Below, in pieces: positions 898 to 14,695 of a stretch of 17,364 bases of DNA. The DNA is taken from IMG/VR virus record IMGVR_UViG_2703718840_000006, one strand, 5' to 3'. The notes under the pieces are model-generated. The model had not been told where the DNA came from and did not search any database. It was given only the letters and a program-made list of their open reading frames with translations. The stretch comes from a virus (taxonomy: Duplodnaviria; Heunggongvirae; Uroviricota; Caudoviricetes). The translations under genes were made by a program, and so were the position numbers. Each line of letters opens with the position of its first letter. Within the stretch, counting starts at the first letter, position 1.

Positions 898-1790
898 TTT
901 AATACCTCTTTGTTTACTGGGGTTAATATCTGAGATGGTAGTTCTGAAAGATTCTCTTGTTCAAGTATATGTTGAAAGCTTTTATTCATCATTATGATGT
1001 TAAAAATCTCATTTACTATTAGTAGGTTGGTTTTTATGAATTTTGAGTTGTTATAAACAGATTTATGTTCAGCGATACTATTTTCATAAAGCTCAATCAA
1101 CTCCTCTGCAGTCATCCTTTTTGATGGTTTGTGATAATAAAATCCGGCTGCTTTTGCACCTTTATTCCCAACTGTTCTTTGATTTAGAATGTGTTTTATC
1201 TTTATAATGTCCCGACTTTTTATTAATTTTTTATCATATGCTTCGGTAAGAATATCTTGTGCTTCCTCAGTTTCACATCTTGCAAATTGCACTGCGAGAT
1301 ACAGAGGCAAATTACCCCGTTCGACTGCTGAGAGAAGTTTATGCTCTCCCTTATCAAGTAGCATATTAATACTGCTCACCCAGTTCGATGAATATCCAGT
1401 AATCTCACTTATTTCGGAGTCTGAAAGTCCTCTGATTTTCATGTCTTTAATCACCTGTAATAACTCATTAGAACGTGGTCTTCTCCTTGCAATGTTTTCA
1501 ACTAAACTCATAACGTAAGCATCTTCTTCTGATACATCTCTTATAATTGCTGGAATAATAGTTTCACCTAATGCAACGAGAGCCTCTATTCTCCCTTGAC
1601 CACAAATTAAAGCATATTTGAAATCGCCTTCATCAATAGCTCTTACGCTTATTGGCTTGCTTAATCCTCTTTTTTTTATGCTTTCCTTTATTTCTTCATG
1701 CACTACCTTATTTCTTGTTCGTGGGTTAAGAAATTTTATTTTTGCAATCTCAATTTGAATTATTGGGAATTCATTTTTTTCAGGCAGCAT
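894..1790 (-). CDS. ParB-family protein (ParB N-terminal domain, HTH, C-terminal extension)
   Basis: 298 aa. Motifs GQGRIEALVALG and LVENIARRRP in the N-terminal domain, followed by an HTH-like LSDSEISEITGYSSNWVSSINMLL. GAGGG lies 7 nt upstream of the ATG; overlaps the recombinase stop by 11 nt, suggesting translational coupling. Confidence 0.65.
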   Translation of the reverse strand: MLPEKNEFPIIQIEIAKIKFLNPRTRNKVVHEEIKESIKKRGLSKPISVRAIDEGDFKYALICGQGRIEALVALGETIIPAIIRDVSEEDAYVMSLVENIARRRPRSNELLQVIKDMKIRGLSDSEISEITGYSSNWVSSINMLLDKGEHKLLSAVERGNLPLYLAVQFARCETEEAQDILTEAYDKKLIKSRDIIKIKHILNQRTVGNKGAKAAGFYYHKPSKRMTAEELIELYENSIAEHKSVYNNSKFIKTNLLIVNEIFNIIMMNKSFQHILEQENLSELPSQILTPVNKEVLK

Positions 1791-3336
1791 ATAGTTCCCT
1801 CACTTTCATGCGAGTAATAATTTGTAGAAGTTTATCAAGATTATCAAATCTATAGAGATCTAATCGAATGTTGTTTGTTTCCGTCATGCACATTTTATTA
1901 TATTCGTTTTCAATCTTTGGTATGATATAAAAATCAAGAGGTGAAATATTTTGTGAATTCATTCGTATAACAATTGTTATGTCTGCTTTCTGTGAGTTAT
2001 CAAACCGGACTTTCCATCTAAGTTTACCTGATTTCATATGTATGCATTTAGTAACAAGGACGGAAATTAAAAACTCATCATTGATGTAAAGCATTGGGGC
2101 ATATTTATACTCGTCTATATGACAGTTACTTTTTAAAATTTCACCCTTAAAATCCTCAATTATCTCTGAGTAAAATGATCTTAGTGCTTCATTTATTTTG
2201 AGATAGCTGTAATCATGTTCTGGCTTATAACCAATCAAAGTATATGCTCTTAAAAGACCACCAAATCGGGTTCTATAAACAGAAGATGAAGGGCCTGTAT
2301 CATCTTCATCAATGATAAAGCCTGATAGTTTTCCATTAGATTCTAATTTTTGTTTTAGTTTTTCTAATAGATCTTCATTAGTCAAATGAATGGATCGGAG
2401 CTGAATTATTTCTTGAGCTTTATTGTATTTTTTCTTTGAAATAATAGGTTTATATGCCTTGTCACATCTAACCCATTCATGTTTGGGGTTTTTTACAAGC
2501 CTACTTTTTAATTTAGATGAGGTTTTGTTATATATGTTGTTTCCAATATATTTTTCATTTGTCAAAATTTGATGTATTTTTGCACGAGTCCATAATGTTC
2601 CATTTTCTGCAGGTATGTTCTGTTCATTTAATCTCTCAGCAATAATGAATTCTGGGACGTTATTATCTATAAAGAGATCATATATTCTATTTACAATTTT
2701 TATTTCATTTTTTGGTCCCGGAATTAATATTACCCTATCTGTTTGAATACTCTTTCTTTTGCGGAAACTCAATATTTCTTTAGCTATGCCATTTTCGTCT
2801 ACTAAAAGACGTCTCAGCCCATAACCAGCCATACCGCCTTGATGATAACCAAGCTTTATTAAATTTACTTGCCCTATAAATACCTTTTCAGATAGATTCC
2901 TGCTGTGATATGCAGCACTAGATCTTTTTATATTCAGTATAACAGAGGACTCTAAAGGGAAATCTTTAGTGGGTATAGGTTCGGAACAATATATAAGATC
3001 TACACCATTTCTCTCAAATAGAAAGGAATAATATGCCGCTTCATCACTATTTTGAAAACGACCAAAACGGCTCACATCATAAAATAATACAGCCTGTATA
3101 TCTATTTTCTTTTGTTCTACATCGCTAAGTAACTGCTGCAAAGAATGCCTGCCTACGATACTGACTCCGCTCTTACCTGCATCATCGTAGGTATAAGCGA
3201 TTTCCATATTGTTCTTTTCAGCATAATCTTTGATATATTCGGACTGATTATGTAAAGAATATTGCTGATGGTCGGTAGACATCCTCAAGTACTGCGCGAC
3301 CCTAACTCTATGATTTTTGTCATTTTCGCTAGCCAT
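1780..3336 (-). CDS. Large serine recombinase (resolvase catalytic domain plus recombinase domain, divergent C-terminus)
   Basis: 518 aa. N-terminal YLRMSTDHQ (catalytic Ser context) and DDAGKSG; recombinase-domain-like GYHQGGMAGYGLRR. No clear CxxC zinc ribbon seen in the C-terminal ~200 aa. GAGG lies 9 nt upstream of the ATG at 3336. Confidence 0.75.
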   Translation of the reverse strand: MASENDKNHRVRVAQYLRMSTDHQQYSLHNQSEYIKDYAEKNNMEIAYTYDDAGKSGVSIVGRHSLQQLLSDVEQKKIDIQAVLFYDVSRFGRFQNSDEAAYYSFLFERNGVDLIYCSEPIPTKDFPLESSVILNIKRSSAAYHSRNLSEKVFIGQVNLIKLGYHQGGMAGYGLRRLLVDENGIAKEILSFRKRKSIQTDRVILIPGPKNEIKIVNRIYDLFIDNNVPEFIIAERLNEQNIPAENGTLWTRAKIHQILTNEKYIGNNIYNKTSSKLKSRLVKNPKHEWVRCDKAYKPIISKKKYNKAQEIIQLRSIHLTNEDLLEKLKQKLESNGKLSGFIIDEDDTGPSSSVYRTRFGGLLRAYTLIGYKPEHDYSYLKINEALRSFYSEIIEDFKGEILKSNCHIDEYKYAPMLYINDEFLISVLVTKCIHMKSGKLRWKVRFDNSQKADITIVIRMNSQNISPLDFYIIPKIENEYNKMCMTETNNIRLDLYRFDNLDKLLQIITRMKVRELYAA

Positions 3337-3618: not shown

Positions 3619-4848
3619 TTATGCGGCAATAACTTTGCATTTTTGAGACGAAACATAGTCACTCCACCATTGCATGAGAACCACCCGTTCAGTGAGATAC
3701 TCTGCACGATTGTAGGCTGCAATTATTTCATCTTTCTTCGAGTGGGCAAGGGCGGCTTCTAAGACATCAGTCCTAAACTTGCCAGACTCCTCAGCAGCCG
3801 TTCTAGCAATGGATCGCATACCGTGAGCTACAAGCTCACCTCCGAAACCCATACGGATTATGGCCGCATTAGCTGTTTGTTCATGCATGTGATTGAGTGG
3901 AGCTTTGATACTGGGGAACACCCACTCTCTATGCCCGCTGATGACTTTCATTAAATCCAAAACTCGCAAAGCTTCTTTGCTCAGTGGAACTTTGTGAGGC
4001 TTCTTCATTTTCATAAACTCCGCCGGGATGTTCCACATGCCAGTTTCAATATCAATATCTGACCATCTTGTGCGAACAGCTTCACCTGGGCGAACCCATG
4101 TGAGAAGTTGCCACTCAATCAGTAGCCTTGTTTCCAAACGGATAGAAGCATTGTTTAGAGCAACCAAGAAGCGAGGGAGTTCGGAAGGGGGTAATGCTGG
4201 CATATTCTGTTTTTTTGGCTTGCTGAACCGTTGCCCCAGGTTGTCTGCCGGGTTGAATTCTATGAGTTCTTCTGTTGCTGCATAGCGGAAAATTTCATTC
4301 AGGCGGGATATGATGCGGCGAAGTGTTTCAAGGACACCTCGTTTTTCTATGGGTTCTAAATGCTGTTTAAGCATTTTAGGGCGAATCTCCTTAATTGGGG
4401 TATCACCCAATGTGGAAAAGATATTTCTCTCTAGGCTTCGCCAGATGTCGTTAGCATGATCTTGGGAGATGCCTGACGTTTTGACTTTCTCATCAAGCCA
4501 CTTCTTGGCTACTGCTTGAAATGTATGTTCCGTGGCATCTTTCAGTGCATTGGCTTTTTGGTTGTTATGAACTTGGGGGTCTATACCATTTGTAAGCAAC
4601 GACAAGTATTCATCACGTAAAGCTCGTGCCTTCGCAAGTGTAAGGTGAGGATAGGTTCCTAAGCTCACCTTAGTTCGCTTTTTGGTCACAGGCACTGCAT
4701 ATCTGAAATACCAATTTTTCTTCCCTCCCTTCGCCAGGGGAGCGATTCGCAACAGCAAACCATCGCCGTCAAAAAGGTTAACCTCTTTTTCGGCAGGTTT
4801 GGTGCTTTTGATTTCAGTGTCAGTGAGCTTCTTAGCGATTTTGGCCAT
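3619..4848 (-). CDS. P4-type tyrosine integrase (arm-binding N-terminal domain plus catalytic domain)
   Basis: Start chosen at the internal ATG (4846-4848, MAKIAKKLTDTEIK) with GAGGG upstream; the track ORF extends to 4929 with a non-canonical start. N-terminal KLTDTEIKSTKP...LFDGDGLLL...WYFRY is typical of P4-like integrases; C-terminal HGMRS and AAYNRAEY supply the HxxR and catalytic Tyr. Lies immediately downstream of the ssrA 3' fragment, same orientation. Confidence 0.85.
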   Translation of the reverse strand: MAKIAKKLTDTEIKSTKPAEKEVNLFDGDGLLLRIAPLAKGGKKNWYFRYAVPVTKKRTKVSLGTYPHLTLAKARALRDEYLSLLTNGIDPQVHNNQKANALKDATEHTFQAVAKKWLDEKVKTSGISQDHANDIWRSLERNIFSTLGDTPIKEIRPKMLKQHLEPIEKRGVLETLRRIISRLNEIFRYAATEELIEFNPADNLGQRFSKPKKQNMPALPPSELPRFLVALNNASIRLETRLLIEWQLLTWVRPGEAVRTRWSDIDIETGMWNIPAEFMKMKKPHKVPLSKEALRVLDLMKVISGHREWVFPSIKAPLNHMHEQTANAAIIRMGFGGELVAHGMRSIARTAAEESGKFRTDVLEAALAHSKKDEIIAAYNRAEYLTERVVLMQWWSDYVSSQKCKVIAA

Positions 4849-5014
4849 GTTTGGGACCCTCGATTTTAGGACCCATCTTCGTGGGTCCCATTCAGGGTGC
4901 CATAACTCGTAGTTCTCAGCAATTCTCACTAGACTACAATAGACGTAAAAAAGCCCGCAGAGCTTGTGCTGTGCGGGCTTAGTAGACTTTACTGAACTTC
5001 AGTACATCAATATT

Positions 5015-5047
5015 TGGTGGAGCTGGCGGGAGTTGAACCCGAGTCCG
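5015..5047 (-). ncRNA. ssrA: 3'-terminal fragment of tmRNA gene ssrA (T-arm, acceptor 3' strand, CCA); integration-site core copy, not a full gene
   Basis: Minus-strand read CGGACTCGGGTTCAACTCCCGCCAGCTCCACCA matches my recollection of the E. coli tmRNA 3' end (GGGTTCAACTCCCGCCAGCTCCACCA). The adjacent upstream sequence is AT-rich and unrelated to tmRNA, and would overlap the methyltransferase CDS, so only the terminal ~33 nt are present. Confidence 0.75.
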
Positions 5048-5119: not shown

Positions 5120-6019
5120 TTATGTCTGGATGTGGTCGTCAACACATCCTCTTTTAAATATAGGCGCTTTTACCTTAGTTGGATCATCTGTTTTAAAGAT
5201 TTTCAATCGTTCACTGAAGAACATTACCTCAGATCCTTTGTACCGATCTTGAGCACTGTAGTTTATTCCATATACTAATGATGATGTCTTATACATAGCT
5301 TGGATCTCAGGAGTGTTATCGTAAGAAACAATCCAAGGCGTTTTAATATTATTCTGTACGACTTTTGCAACCCTAACATGATCATCATGATCATAATGGT
5401 TGATATATAAACCTTTACCTTTTATGTAATAAGGTGGATCCAAATATGTTAATGAGTTTTGTGGCAATTGAATAACTATTTTTTTTATGAAATCAATTGC
5501 ATCCATGTTATATAAATCTATTCTGTGACGATTTTCTGATATTTTATGGATTCGAGAAATCAAATCACTCTTATTATAGCGAGCGTCAAGCTTCCATTTC
5601 CCTTCTTGATTTTTACCGCCAATTACACCACCTTTTAATATTCCAGAACGATTTGTTCTATTGAGAAAAAAGGTTGAGAAACCAATTGTTAAAAGATCAT
5701 GGTCTTTAGGATTATTAATTATATCTTTCTGCCTAAACCATTCATCCATTGTAACTTCTGTTCTTTCAATTAAAGAACATAATTGATCTGCATGATTTAA
5801 TACACTGTGCCAAAAAGCATAAACAGAAATATTAATATCATTAAGGATGATTTTTTCAGCTGCATTTAGATGTAACAGTTTCAATGCTAAACCAGCACCC
5901 CCAGCATATGGTTCGGCATAATGTATAGGCGAAAGATTATTTTCTTCAATAATCCGAAGCATGAAATTTGCAAGCTTGCCTTTACCGCCAGGATAGCGAA
6001 GTGGGGTGTTAAAACGCAT
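5120..6019 (-). CDS. Dam-family (D12 class) N6-adenine DNA methyltransferase
   Basis: 299 aa. Motifs in Dam order: LRYPGGKGK, YAEPYAGGAGLA (AdoMet-binding), FFLNRTNRSG, YLDPPYY (catalytic DPPY). GAGG lies 6 nt upstream of the ATG at 6019. Target sequence cannot be read from sequence. Confidence 0.85.
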   Translation of the reverse strand: MRFNTPLRYPGGKGKLANFMLRIIEENNLSPIHYAEPYAGGAGLALKLLHLNAAEKIILNDINISVYAFWHSVLNHADQLCSLIERTEVTMDEWFRQKDIINNPKDHDLLTIGFSTFFLNRTNRSGILKGGVIGGKNQEGKWKLDARYNKSDLISRIHKISENRHRIDLYNMDAIDFIKKIVIQLPQNSLTYLDPPYYIKGKGLYINHYDHDDHVRVAKVVQNNIKTPWIVSYDNTPEIQAMYKTSSLVYGINYSAQDRYKGSEVMFFSERLKIFKTDDPTKVKAPIFKRGCVDDHIQT

Positions 6020-6053
6020 ATGATACCTCTAAATGTCAGATCTAAAGTATATC

Positions 6054-6092
6054 AAAAAAAGGGCTTTATGGCCATCACATAAAACCCTTTTT
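6054..6092. terminator. Bidirectional intrinsic-terminator-like hairpin between the ATPase and methyltransferase genes
   Basis: A7 (6054-6060), stem GGGCTTTATG / CATAAAACCC (one mismatch) with 7-nt loop (6061-6087), then T5 (6088-6092). On the minus strand the hairpin is followed by a U7 run. Confidence 0.45.
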
Positions 6093-6098
6093 AATCAA

Positions 6099-7832
6099 TT
6101 AGTTATCTGACAGATATGATGAGATGGTAGCAGAATCGACACCATGTCCACTTATCATAATAACTTTAAGACTCTTTATTAGTTCATTCTTGAAGCTATC
6201 CGATTGCACAGGATTTTTCTCGACCCAATATCGATATGGGTTATCTTTAACTCGTCCTTTGACTTGGTCCTGAAATTGAGTCGTATGTGCAAAATCTTTA
6301 AACAGTTTTCTCACTCTCCCGCCATGATTTTTGTTAACTTTTTTATAATTATCTATAAGGATTTTTAAATCAATCGGAGCGTTACCAATCTTTAGCGTTG
6401 TAATTATGTCTTTAGCTGTTTTCATAAAAACAGATTTTGTAAATTTATTTTTATTTTCCCAATATGCATCATCAGGTGGTAAATTATATAAAAACTCAAA
6501 AATCATTTGGTCTGGAGGTAAGGTGCTTGGAAGCAAACATAAGTTTTTTTCTTTTTTGGCTTTTTTTGCATTAGCACTGTTGTCGTGAACAACATCACCG
6601 TCTAAGACGATCAAGCTTTTAGCTGTAAATTCTGGTATTTTTCTTGCCATTAAGTCAAGCATGGCAGAGCAGCTAATATTTATATTTCCTAATGGATTTA
6701 ATATTTTATTTATTTTTCGATCTGTTATCAATTGTTTGAAAAAGTCGAAACCTTCTTTGTCTTCAAAATATACATTTGCTTTTGGAAGACAAATGTCATC
6801 ATTAATTTTTACAGTTTCAACATGTAAATCAGCGTGGATATCTGTCCATGAAAGATTATTCTTTGTTTTAATATCTCCATATGTGTCTGTAAGATATATT
6901 GTTTTAAAGCTATCACTATCTTGTTTTGAACGATTATAGATATCCTCTATTATTAATGGAGAGTGCGAGGTCATGATTATTTGCAGATCGTATTGTTTTG
7001 CTGCTTTAGTTAGAATATTAATTAGCTCTAACTGTGCAGCAGGGAAAAGACCTGCATCGGCTTCATCAATTAACAATATTCCGCCATGATAATCAGAATA
7101 AGTTTCCTTCAATCTTTTAAATGAAAAAATTGCTTGGATTAATTGTCCAACATTATCTTCACCAACAGATACTGATTGGTGATCATAATTGTCACCATGG
7201 ACAACCATTGAATCGATAGTACCTTTTGTTGCTGTTACTGAGCTTCCATTGTTTTTTAGTAAGAGTTGGTTACTCATCATTCTGATTTCATCAGAATTTT
7301 CATTGATGTACTGAACATCCCGTGTTGAGTAATCAGTCCTTAATGTAATAGGAAGAAGTCGTGCTAAGCTTAAAAAAATAACAGGATGAGTAACGTTTCT
7401 ACTTTGGTTTTTTTCCGGTATTGAATCATTTCCCCTGACTACAGGCCTTGATTTATCTCTGTCACTGTAGCTGTATAAACCTAATGTTAGTTTTTCAAGA
7501 TGTTTGTTCGATGCACCATCATAGACACTAATTTTGACGTCCATTGAACCAGGAACATCAAATTGTTCTGAAAGCCTAAAATGTTCGCTGAAAGCTGACT
7601 TGAAGCTGCCATTTGTTAATGTTTTATATTGTGTTAAATCAGTCTCAGGGTTTTTGGTAAAGTCCTTTGTAAAGCTAAATATTTGGGCGATAATGCCAAG
7701 AATTGTGGATTTAGATGTGCCATTTTTACCACAAATAACAGTTAGGCGAGAACCAAACTCGATGTTTATATTTTTCAGTCCGCGAAACTTCACAACATTT
7801 ATATTTTTTAGTTTGGTAATTTGATTTGCCAT
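6099..7832 (-). CDS. ABC/SMC-type ATPase with TOPRIM-like C-terminal region (OLD-family or fused PARIS-like nuclease candidate)
   Basis: Walker A GKNGTSKST, Walker B ILLIDEAD, H-loop IMTSHSP. The C-terminal ~250 aa contain FEDKEG and LDGD acidic motifs about 55 residues apart, consistent with TOPRIM (not verified). Start placed at internal ATG 7832 (MANQITKLKNI; GGAG upstream; Walker A then sits at the usual distance); the track ORF starts at 7883 with no SD. Confidence 0.7.
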   Translation of the reverse strand: MANQITKLKNINVVKFRGLKNINIEFGSRLTVICGKNGTSKSTILGIIAQIFSFTKDFTKNPETDLTQYKTLTNGSFKSAFSEHFRLSEQFDVPGSMDVKISVYDGASNKHLEKLTLGLYSYSDRDKSRPVVRGNDSIPEKNQSRNVTHPVIFLSLARLLPITLRTDYSTRDVQYINENSDEIRMMSNQLLLKNNGSSVTATKGTIDSMVVHGDNYDHQSVSVGEDNVGQLIQAIFSFKRLKETYSDYHGGILLIDEADAGLFPAAQLELINILTKAAKQYDLQIIMTSHSPLIIEDIYNRSKQDSDSFKTIYLTDTYGDIKTKNNLSWTDIHADLHVETVKINDDICLPKANVYFEDKEGFDFFKQLITDRKINKILNPLGNINISCSAMLDLMARKIPEFTAKSLIVLDGDVVHDNSANAKKAKKEKNLCLLPSTLPPDQMIFEFLYNLPPDDAYWENKNKFTKSVFMKTAKDIITTLKIGNAPIDLKILIDNYKKVNKNHGGRVRKLFKDFAHTTQFQDQVKGRVKDNPYRYWVEKNPVQSDSFKNELIKSLKVIMISGHGVDSATISSYLSDN

Positions 7833-7890
7833 GTTTGTATCTTGCTCCGTAAAATGGCCACAAATTGTGGCCAATAGTTTCATGCTTGGA

Positions 7891-9057
7891 TTATATTGTT
7901 ATCTTCTTCAAGCTTGTTTGTCCATCATATTCCTTCAGATATGAGCCATAGTGCCTGAAAAGCATCTCCGGTCCTTTATGCCCCATTTGAGCTGCAAGCC
8001 AAAACAGGTTTGCTCCTCGGCTGATATGGCTGGTGGCGAATGTATGCCTGGTTTGATATGGATTTCTGTATCGAATACCTGCTTTCCGCAATGTTGGAAC
8101 CCATGCTTTTTTCCTGATTGCATCAGCACTTGCCCAAGGCTTATTGGTCTTTGGGTCTTCAAAGACAGTAGCATCCTTCATGAATGTAAATGGCTTCTGA
8201 TTTATCAGCGCCAACATTGCTTCTTCTGTCAGTTCAACTTTACGAGTACCTGCTTTTGTCTTTGTCCCTTTGATAACACCGACAACACTTGCGCTCTGGA
8301 CATGGGCAGTTTTTCCAACAAAGTCGATATCACGCCATCGAAGGGCACATAATTCAGAACTACGCAGGCCTGTATGTATAGCGAACCGGAACAGATTCTC
8401 CCATTGTTTGTTTCCGGCTGCTGCTAGTAATGCATCAACTTCTGCTGGTGATAGCGGATCAACCACGTAGCTGCTTTCTGCTTCTGACTTATCACTTTGG
8501 TAGCGCGAAGCAGTTACCAACGATACGGGGTTAATTTGAAGTACCCCATCGGTTACGGCTTCATCAAGTGCTGACCGCAGGAAAGATAACTGGTTGCGAA
8601 TTGTTTTTAAGGTCGTTTTCTGGCTTTGAATCCACGCTTTCAGGATTGCTGGTGTTAATTCACTTGCAGGGCAAATGTGGAGTGAGGCTAACGCACTACG
8701 GCATTTTTTATAACCACCAATCGTTGAGGGTGAGAGTTTTCTCGTTTCGCAGATTTCAAGGTATTCGTCCAAGTACATTTTTACCGTTTTGCCTGCAGCA
8801 GCATTACCAAAAATTTTCAAACGAGCAGAACGGGGAAAATATTCCGCATAAATGAATGTTCCCCTTTCGATCTTATTATGAATTTCGCCGAGTGTGCGCT
8901 CGGCGTATTTAATGTTCTTTGGTGTTACTTCCAGATTGGAAAGAGGCTCACGACATTTAACTCCTTTATAGGTGAAAGTTATATTGATCGTTTCGCCCTG
9001 GCGGTGTTTCCTGATTGTTACGCCGCGCGGTAGTTTGAGCAGTTTTGTCTGGCCCAT
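7891..9057 (-). CDS. int: Lambdoid-type tyrosine integrase
   Basis: 388 aa. C-terminal catalytic signature QTRHTFATSH...GH...RHYGSY. Preceded by an overlapping excisionase-like gene. Transcribed toward the ssrA-derived att side, as in lambda. Confidence 0.85.
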   Translation of the reverse strand: MGQTKLLKLPRGVTIRKHRQGETINITFTYKGVKCREPLSNLEVTPKNIKYAERTLGEIHNKIERGTFIYAEYFPRSARLKIFGNAAAGKTVKMYLDEYLEICETRKLSPSTIGGYKKCRSALASLHICPASELTPAILKAWIQSQKTTLKTIRNQLSFLRSALDEAVTDGVLQINPVSLVTASRYQSDKSEAESSYVVDPLSPAEVDALLAAAGNKQWENLFRFAIHTGLRSSELCALRWRDIDFVGKTAHVQSASVVGVIKGTKTKAGTRKVELTEEAMLALINQKPFTFMKDATVFEDPKTNKPWASADAIRKKAWVPTLRKAGIRYRNPYQTRHTFATSHISRGANLFWLAAQMGHKGPEMLFRHYGSYLKEYDGQTSLKKITI

Positions 9058-14332: not shown

Positions 14333-14695
14333 ATGCTCTTTGACTTGGCTTCCGGGGACGCACTATTTATCTCTGAACCAGGCCCATTAGCGGAAAATGT
14401 CACCTGGTTGTCGCCGGAAGGGGAATATCAGAAGTGGAACGGTACAGCCTGGGTGAAAGATGCAGAAGCAGAAAAACTATTCCGGATCCGGGAGGCGGAA
14501 GAAACAAAAAACAGCCTGATGCAGGTAGCCAGTGAGCATATAGCGCCGCTTCAGGATGCTGTAGATCTGGAGATCGCAACGGAGGAAGAAAATTCGTTGC
14601 TGGAAGCCTGGAAAAAGTATCGGGTGTTGCTGAACCGTGTTGATACATCAACTGCACCTGATATTGAGTGGCCGATAATTCCTGTAACATCATAG
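14333..14695 (+). CDS. tfa: Tail fibre assembly protein (lambda Tfa family, short form)
   Basis: 120 aa; ATG with AGGGGA upstream. Sequence [14 protein letters not shown]...[19 protein letters not shown]...[25 protein letters not shown] closely matches my recollection of the lambda Tfa C-terminal two-thirds. Confidence 0.8.

Follow-up and report, generated by a model that had tools for sequence, protein, structure and literature searches.

A conserved terminator-like hairpin and a predicted methylase promoter between the two genes of an OLD-like ATPase–methylase cassette in a phiNP-like prophage

Phage morons are self-contained units of promoter, gene, and terminator that are found in prophages. 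Among the restriction-modification (R-M) systems in which the restriction gene (R) precedes the methylase gene (M), the Eco29kI genes partly overlap, the methylase is supplied by a separate M promoter inside the R coding sequence, and no terminator between R and M has been described (PMC3113576). The M gene of EcoRI has its own PM1,M2 promoters, and these are subject to interference by an antisense RNA initiated at the 3′ end of R (PMC3141266). PD-lambda-5 consists of a methylase and a ParB/HEPN protein (Vassallo et al. 2022, PMC9519451). OLD proteins have been divided into classes 1–4 in a 2023 review, in which no methylase-linked class is described (PMC10568477). The phage phiNP has a 25-bp attachment core in ssrA, and the gene pair considered here appears among its predicted gene functions only as "ATPase, fitness" (PMC6456863). 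A literature search for an AAA_15 ATPase together with an adenine methyltransferase in an anti-phage context found nothing.

We analyzed the window, a 17,364-nt stretch of DNA from a Caudoviricetes virus (IMG/VR record IMGVR_UViG_2703718840_000006), in which an OLD-like ATPase gene and a methylase gene are separated by a hairpin. A sequence-only reading had described this hairpin as an A7–10-bp stem–T5 structure resembling a terminator, and the letters are as described. In our main reading, to which we assign a probability of roughly 0.7, the hairpin is a Rho-independent terminator on the coding strand fused to a sigma-70 promoter of the methylase gene, and the two genes form one cassette but are transcribed separately. 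The coordinates of the features are summarized in Table 1.

Table 1. Features of the ATPase–methylase junction, with positions in the window.
Feature	Position	Strand	Remark
OLD-like ATPase gene	6099–7832	-	Upstream gene of the pair; ABC-type ATPase domain, then Toprim-like C-terminal domain
Hairpin, plus-strand reading	6054–6092	+	A7 6054–6060, GGGCTTTATG 6061–6070, loop GCCATCA 6071–6077, CATAAAACCC 6078–6087, T5 6088–6092
A5 run before the stem	6088–6092	-	Could lengthen the helix through base pairs with U residues 1–5 of the tail
Putative terminator stem, 5′ arm GGGUUUUAUG	6078–6087	-	
Loop UGAUGGC, 7 nt	6071–6077	-	
Putative terminator stem, 3′ arm CAUAAAGCCC	6061–6070	-	
U7 tract of the putative terminator	6054–6060	-	Also the promoter-proximal part of the predicted promoter spacer
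-35-like hexamer TGGCCA	6069–6074	-	Spans the loop and the top of the 3′ arm
Extended -10 TGaTATACT (predicted)	6046–6054	-	TG 6054–6053, hexamer 6051–6046
Second, weaker hairpin pairing the methylase Shine-Dalgarno sequence	6021–6054	-	Clade-specific; significance doubtful
Methylase Shine-Dalgarno sequence AGAGG	6026–6030	-	6 nt before the ATG
D12-class (Dam-like) N6-adenine DNA methyltransferase gene	5120–6019	-	299 codons; downstream of the ATPase gene

The gene pair, its distribution, and its genomic context

The methylase matched Pfam MethyltransfD12 (1.8e-19) and PADLOC PD-Lambda-5_B (PDLC04018, E = 6.3e-124), and it was approximately 52% identical to the methylases of PD-lambda-5-type loci. 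With regard to the ATPase, the open frame of 594 codons covers positions 6099–7883, and the conserved start is the ATG at 7832, based on the RefSeq start and a conserved AAGG Shine-Dalgarno sequence. The protein matched Pfam AAA_15, AAA_21, AAA_23, and SMC_N, and the Walker A motif GKNGTSKS, which includes K36, was invariant among the homologues. No Pfam match was obtained for the C-terminal half, and the sequence profile matched only ATPase motifs in the PDB. An AlphaFold2 model built with 40 homologues had a mean pLDDT of 89, and its best full-length Foldseek matches were GajA of Gabija (8sm3_A, 1.3e-11) and the Thermus OLD nuclease (6p74, 3.2e-11). Residues E357/D358 and D411xD413 were invariant in 40 ATPase homologues, as would be expected for a Toprim domain. 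The sequence and the model together point to an OLD-like protein and a putative nuclease.

A scan of one genome per species yielded 80 loci encoding relatives of the ATPase in Proteobacteria, Bacteroidota, Mycobacterium, and Listeria, and a homologous methylase gene lay directly after the ATPase gene on the same strand in 72 of the 80, across phyla. The two genes overlapped in 19 of these 72 loci and were 1–8 nt apart in 36, and a spacer of 55–138 nt was found in only 10; betaproteobacterial relatives showed a 2-nt junction. The 72/80 pairing and the tight arrangement in 55 of the 72 therefore indicate that the pair is conserved as a cassette and is normally organized as a translationally coupled operon. 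The hairpin had earlier been taken to bear on whether the two genes form a single functional system; the conserved pairing lends no support to doubt on this point. The long spacers were found mainly in gammaproteobacterial copies, several of which lie inside prophages or ICEs; these copies include phiNP-type and e14-type prophages, an ICE, and Pseudomonas and Acinetobacter loci. Considering that most pairs are overlapping or 1–8 nt apart, the spacer that carries the predicted terminator and promoter is therefore a derived trait of gammaproteobacterial mobile elements. Among 5,426 complete E. coli genomes, 85 carried the pair. Strains 042 and JJ1886 are E. coli hosts of the cassette.

In the window, the pair is located between the integrase gene (7891–9057) and the right end of a phiNP-like prophage. 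The phiNP attachment core corresponds to the 3′ end of ssrA at 5015–5039, where the prophage ends. A terminator hairpin at 4945–4980, which we take to be the native ssrA terminator, lies beyond the core. A second island follows beyond ssrA, with a P4-type integrase (3619–4929), a serine recombinase (1780–3336), and two ParB/RepB-like genes (1–1790). The succession of attachment core, hairpin, and P4-type integrase island therefore indicates that two mobile elements are integrated in tandem at ssrA, and the second island differs between strains (loci L001 and L002). The Citrobacter phage phiNP (OR565852.1) has the same pair with 86% nucleotide identity; its methylase open reading frame (L099, 126–1007, 293 codons) is intact and downstream of the ATPase gene and is unannotated in the GenBank record. 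Remnants of the integrase 3′ end were observed upstream of the ATPase gene in L101, L102, and L105, even where the locus is without an integrase gene, and the cassette seems to be ancestrally tied to a phiNP-type integrase and to outlive prophage decay.

Several further observations were made around the pair. The window is a mosaic relative to E. coli GN4143 (L001): identity is 97–99% over the methylase gene, the spacer, and the final 200 nt of the ATPase gene, approximately 85% over the bulk of the ATPase gene together with the integrase 3′ end, and 97–100% over the rest of the integrase gene. The divergent block spans about 6300–8100 of the window and suggests recombination or diversifying selection on the effector. 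The same methylase family occurs elsewhere with PD-Lambda-5_A (L005 and L006) and, in the P2 hotspot locus L007, in reverse order with a 25%-identical ATPase. In Enterovibrio norvegicus (L107, 2501–6709), the gene after the ATPase homologue is a methylase gene in convergent orientation, directly adjoining a 506-codon gene of the opposite strand, and this arrangement may represent a PD-lambda-5-like pair beside an orphan ATPase. A second conserved dyad, UGGCCACA-AUU-UGUGGCCA followed by UUUUA, is found at 7855–7873 on the minus strand, between the integrase stop (7891) and the ATPase start (7832). Covariation is seen between its arms, which read TGACCAC/ATGGTCA in Klebsiella and GTTAC/GTAAC in L105. 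The dyad has TGGCCA in common with the -35-like hexamer of the methylase and could be an integrase terminator or an operator. In the prophage region, 14454–14652 on the plus strand matched IS009, an E. coli sRNA family in Rfam, over its full length (220 bits).

The hairpin and its conservation among relatives

The gap that contains the hairpin is 79 nt long (6020–6098), one less than the 80 bp first given, and the helix starts 6 nt past the ATPase stop codon in the sense orientation on the same strand. The minus-strand reading is the relevant one because both flanking genes are on the minus strand; in the sense RNA, the A5 run, the 5′ arm, the loop, the 3′ arm, and the U7 tract follow in this order. 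The 10-bp stem contains one non-Watson-Crick position, which is a C·A mismatch on the plus strand and a G·U pair on the minus strand. With an A/U content of 60%, the stem has only four G-C pairs, three of them at the base. The energy of the core hairpin was -11.2 kcal/mol on the minus strand versus -8.2 kcal/mol on the plus strand. With the A/U extension, the values were -16.9 kcal/mol (z -5.0) and -14.4 kcal/mol (z -4.8), respectively, and none of 200 shuffles was equal.

We scanned both strands of the window for terminators under strict settings (stem of at least 8 bp with at least three G-C pairs, loop of 3–8 nt, and at least six T in the next 8 nt). Two sites were obtained versus 0.41 expected from shuffles, and the minus-strand hairpin was one of the two. 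A general terminator scan of the window did not list the hairpin at 6054–6092; we think that the stem was perhaps extended through the A/U pairs, which shortened the tail. The hairpin is unique within the window, with no other copy of its sequence, and a dispersed repeat or a known RNA family was rejected based on the lack of a second window copy, of separate matches in E. coli genomes, and of any Rfam match in the ATPase–methylase gap. The earlier description as terminator-like agrees with these data: every sequence feature of an intrinsic terminator is present and, as shown below, the stem co-varies among relatives. By these features, the element at 6054–6092 is a canonical intrinsic (Rho-independent) terminator of putative activity.

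The spacers of relatives with ATPases 61–99% identical to that of the window were collected, and 14 distinct sequences were aligned. The spacer was 79–85 nt long in the relatives with ATPases 61–88% identical, with the hairpin at the same place. The stem sequences differ among the relatives, such as GGCAUUAUGA/UCAUGAUGCC in L104 and GGCGAUUAU/AUAAUCGCC in L108. Nevertheless, 87.9% of the cells were paired over the 14 relatives, and compensatory double changes were found at 6 of the 10 stem pairs. The covariation score of the stem was 0.34, versus 0.118 ± 0.028 in shuffles (0 of 500 reached 0.34) and at most 0.173 in a control with slid partners. RNAalifold predicted the terminator helix, and no other, from the spacers of the relatives. 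The 8 nt after the stem contained a median of seven T in the 14 relatives (U8 in L001), although this conservation is confounded with the role of the U-tract as an A/T-rich promoter spacer. The A-run was poorly conserved, with a median of four A in the 7 nt before the stem. These results indicate that the hairpin is real and evolutionarily conserved, and that it is a predicted transcription stop signal at the end of the ATPase gene.

The hairpin had also been read as a terminator on either strand. That claim does not hold, since only the minus strand, on which both genes lie, has the U7 tract and a fully paired stem, and the A-run is not conserved. The plus-strand reading of the hairpin is weaker and not conserved. 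On the aligned sequences, the terminator element would thus be directional, and the either-strand reading applies only to the clade of the window itself. In L106, L108, and L110, the promoter motif described below is still present although the hairpin or its tail has decayed; the terminator is therefore less constrained than the promoter.

The predicted methylase promoter and the alternative explanations

A promoter scan picked up TGGCCA and TATACT separated by 17 nt, with the TG of an extended -10 (6074–6046, minus strand). The distance from the end of the -10 hexamer to the methylase ATG is 26 nt in the window and 26–28 nt in the relatives. The -10 positions T1, A2, A4, and T6 were invariant in the alignment, and TG was present in 13 of the 14 sequences, whereas the n position varied freely; this is the pattern that would be expected of a working extended -10. 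TGGCCA matches the -35 consensus at only four of six positions, and L001 and L008 have TGTCCA, with three of six. A systematic search found TGGCCA at 17–18 nt from the -10 in the window, L099–L103, L105, L108–L110, L003, L010, and the Pseudomonas loci L011 and L012, the last two with TGGCCA-17-TAAACT. L003 and L010 share the promoter geometry, although their ATPases are 54% identical and their hairpins are unrelated in sequence, and TGGCCA-17/18-TGnTAnAnT is kept across lineages with unrelated hairpin sequences (L003, L010, L104, and L108). The promoter is thus, on the aligned motifs, the more widely conserved half of the predicted terminator-promoter module. These results strongly suggest a separate sigma-70 promoter for the methylase, in agreement with one of the two possibilities raised by the sequence-only reading. 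As the -35 is in the hairpin loop and the U-tract is inside the 17-nt spacer, the terminator and the promoter therefore form one compact module.

The methylase also has its own Shine-Dalgarno sequence, as had been noted, and its GAGG was invariant in 14 of 14 relatives. Sequestration of this sequence by the second hairpin, such that only promoter-derived transcripts could be translated, was considered and rejected as a general feature. In the window clade, the predicted probability that the Shine-Dalgarno sequence is unpaired was 0.05 in read-through RNA versus 0.22 in promoter-derived RNA. The direction of this difference was inconsistent across the 14 relatives, and the helix had only 69% of cells paired with little covariation. 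Two short motifs were also rejected. Three of the five TGGCCA copies in the window sit in the two regulatory gaps of the cassette, but TGGCCA as a site for the methylase or a regulator is not conserved as a motif, being replaced in relatives by TGTCCA, TGACCA/TGGTCA, or GTTAC/GTAAC. The spacer also contains a GATC (AGATCT), which L008 and phiNP lack.

The predicted terminator is built directly onto the methylase promoter, and the two genes are therefore probably transcribed separately. A polymerase coming from the ATPase gene would make the stem-loop and the U7 tract and release its transcript 6–45 nt after the stop codon. The methylase promoter would use the same DNA, with its -35 in the loop, the 3′ arm and the U-tract as its 17-nt spacer, and the extended -10 directly after; the predicted transcription start is approximately 20 nt before the methylase ATG. 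In a lysogen, the methylase would be expressed from a short transcript of its own and shielded from the signals that drive the ATPase gene. The likely reason would be that the protective methylase is kept on regardless of effector transcription, as in R-M systems with R before M. We speculate that, during lytic growth, polymerase that starts at the early leftward promoter and is modified for antitermination might continue through the hairpin. Actual termination and initiation, their efficiencies, and the biological reason are what we infer from the sequence. The terminator features and the suggested methylase promoter therefore make differential expression of the two genes a reasonable inference, and to this extent the original interpretation stands; its either-strand reading and its doubt about a single system do not.

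The hairpin may instead be a partial terminator within a simple operon, an attenuator that sets the ATPase:methylase ratio, with the methylase expressed mainly from read-through RNA and the promoter-like motif inactive. Most relatives are tightly coupled operons, the terminator stem is A/U-rich, and the window contains no more consensus promoter matches than shuffles do (44 versus 47.4), all of which would suit such an arrangement. We nevertheless consider it unlikely, because the position, spacing, and critical bases of the promoter motif are maintained in lineages whose hairpins differ. Furthermore, efficient terminators typically show a stem closed by three G-C pairs and followed by U7, and an attenuator would shift the balance from the protective methylase toward the effector, which is the more hazardous way round.

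A second alternative is that the inverted repeat serves as an operator in the DNA: a regulator acting as a dimer, which could be the methylase or the ATPase itself, would bind the dyad over the -35 and autoregulate the methylase promoter, and the RNA structure would be incidental. Autoregulation by the methylase at promoter dyads has precedent in some R-M systems. Here, the dyad and the -35 overlap, TGGCCA recurs in a second dyad located upstream of the ATPase gene, and the hairpin of the Pseudomonas relatives is formed around TGGCCA without a U-tract. An operator would, however, conserve the sequence of its half-sites, whereas the arms vary freely with pairing kept, including nine G·U cells, which are mismatches in DNA. 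The U-tract is conserved in the enterobacterial clade, and a search for a DNA-binding regulator domain in the ATPase and the methylase detected none in either protein. An operator is thus quite improbable.

We regard it as very improbable that the hairpin is a terminator in both directions, or a plain insulator, and would also block antisense (plus-strand) transcription coming from the methylase side. With A5 and U7 on either side of the stem in the window, the plus strand folds too, but its stem carries the C·A mismatch and is followed by only T5, the A-run is not conserved among relatives, and both neighboring genes are on the minus strand, with no convergent gene from the methylase side. 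A functionless chance palindrome, or a scar at the recombination junction of two gene modules, is scarcely credible even though the methylase family has other partners in L005, L006, and L007, considering the stem covariation, the positional conservation, the fact that the hairpin sequence is not a dispersed repeat, and the identity profile against GN4143, which places the breakpoints near 6300, inside the ATPase gene, and near 8100, not at the hairpin.

A terminator fused to the methylase promoter thus remains the preferred reading, and it describes how an R-M-like cassette is wired in phiNP-type prophages: the effector probably ends at its own terminator, and the methylase probably starts at its own promoter. 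The cassette looks like an uncharacterized R-M-like defense system with exchangeable effectors. We tentatively propose, as a possibility that we hold to be rather less than even, that an OLD-type ATPase-Toprim protein and a PD-lambda-5_B-family methylase form such an anti-phage system, and that in gammaproteobacterial temperate phages and islands its ancestral, translationally coupled operon has been rewired by a compact terminator-promoter module that makes the methylase constitutive. If this is true, the methylase would be independent of effector transcription, which would allow, for example, safe lysogenization of an unmethylated host. The locus would then be a concrete and testable case, with exact coordinates, of the regulatory rewiring of a defense cassette after its move into mobile elements. 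The element itself is an ordinary kind of gene control and the hairpin has low novelty; the OLD-like nuclease and methylase cassette is the more interesting object and merits a separate study.

Comparison with known systems

The hairpin resembles canonical Rho-independent terminators of E. coli and its phages in its G-C-closed stem base, 7-nt loop, uninterrupted U7 tract, and position just past the stop codon, and also in its upstream A-run that is able to extend the helix. It differs from them in its stem, which is 60% A/U, and in being merged with a predicted promoter, whose -35 is in the loop and whose spacer contains the U-tract.

The cassette resembles morons in that accessory genes lie between the integrase gene and the attachment site, a hairpin follows each gene, and the methylase has its own predicted promoter. 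Unlike morons, the two genes are one conserved cassette that is elsewhere a tightly coupled operon.

Like PD-lambda-5, the cassette has two genes, is prophage-borne, and includes a PD-Lambda-5_B methylase. The partner is an OLD-like ATPase and not the ParB/HEPN protein PD-Lambda-5_A, which was not among the best 25 of the 115 PADLOC matches of the ATPase; true PD-Lambda-5_A proteins scored 4e-74 in L005 and 5e-168 in L006. The cassette is not PD-lambda-5 because the methylase partner in that system is the ParB/HEPN protein. This hairpin is also absent from the PD-lambda-5-type loci: the genes of L005 are convergent with a shared hairpin between them, and L006 has a palindrome without a U-tract.

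The predicted N-terminal ABC-type ATPase and Toprim-like C-terminal domain are the arrangement of OLD-family nucleases, including GajA of Gabija. Unlike Gabija, the neighboring gene encodes a D12 methylase and not the UvrD-like helicase GajB, and likewise neither a retron nor AriB accompanies the ATPase. PADLOC has no dedicated family for an OLD-like ATPase and methylase cassette, which fits none of the four OLD classes of the 2023 review (PMC10568477).

The layout resembles that of Eco29kI and EcoRI, with the nuclease-type gene first, the methylase second on the same strand, and a methylase promoter of its own, here predicted; in such a layout, protection is independent of effector transcription. 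Unlike Eco29kI and EcoRI, the cassette described here, in which restriction is putative, has a dedicated 79-nt spacer that holds both the predicted terminator and the predicted promoter.
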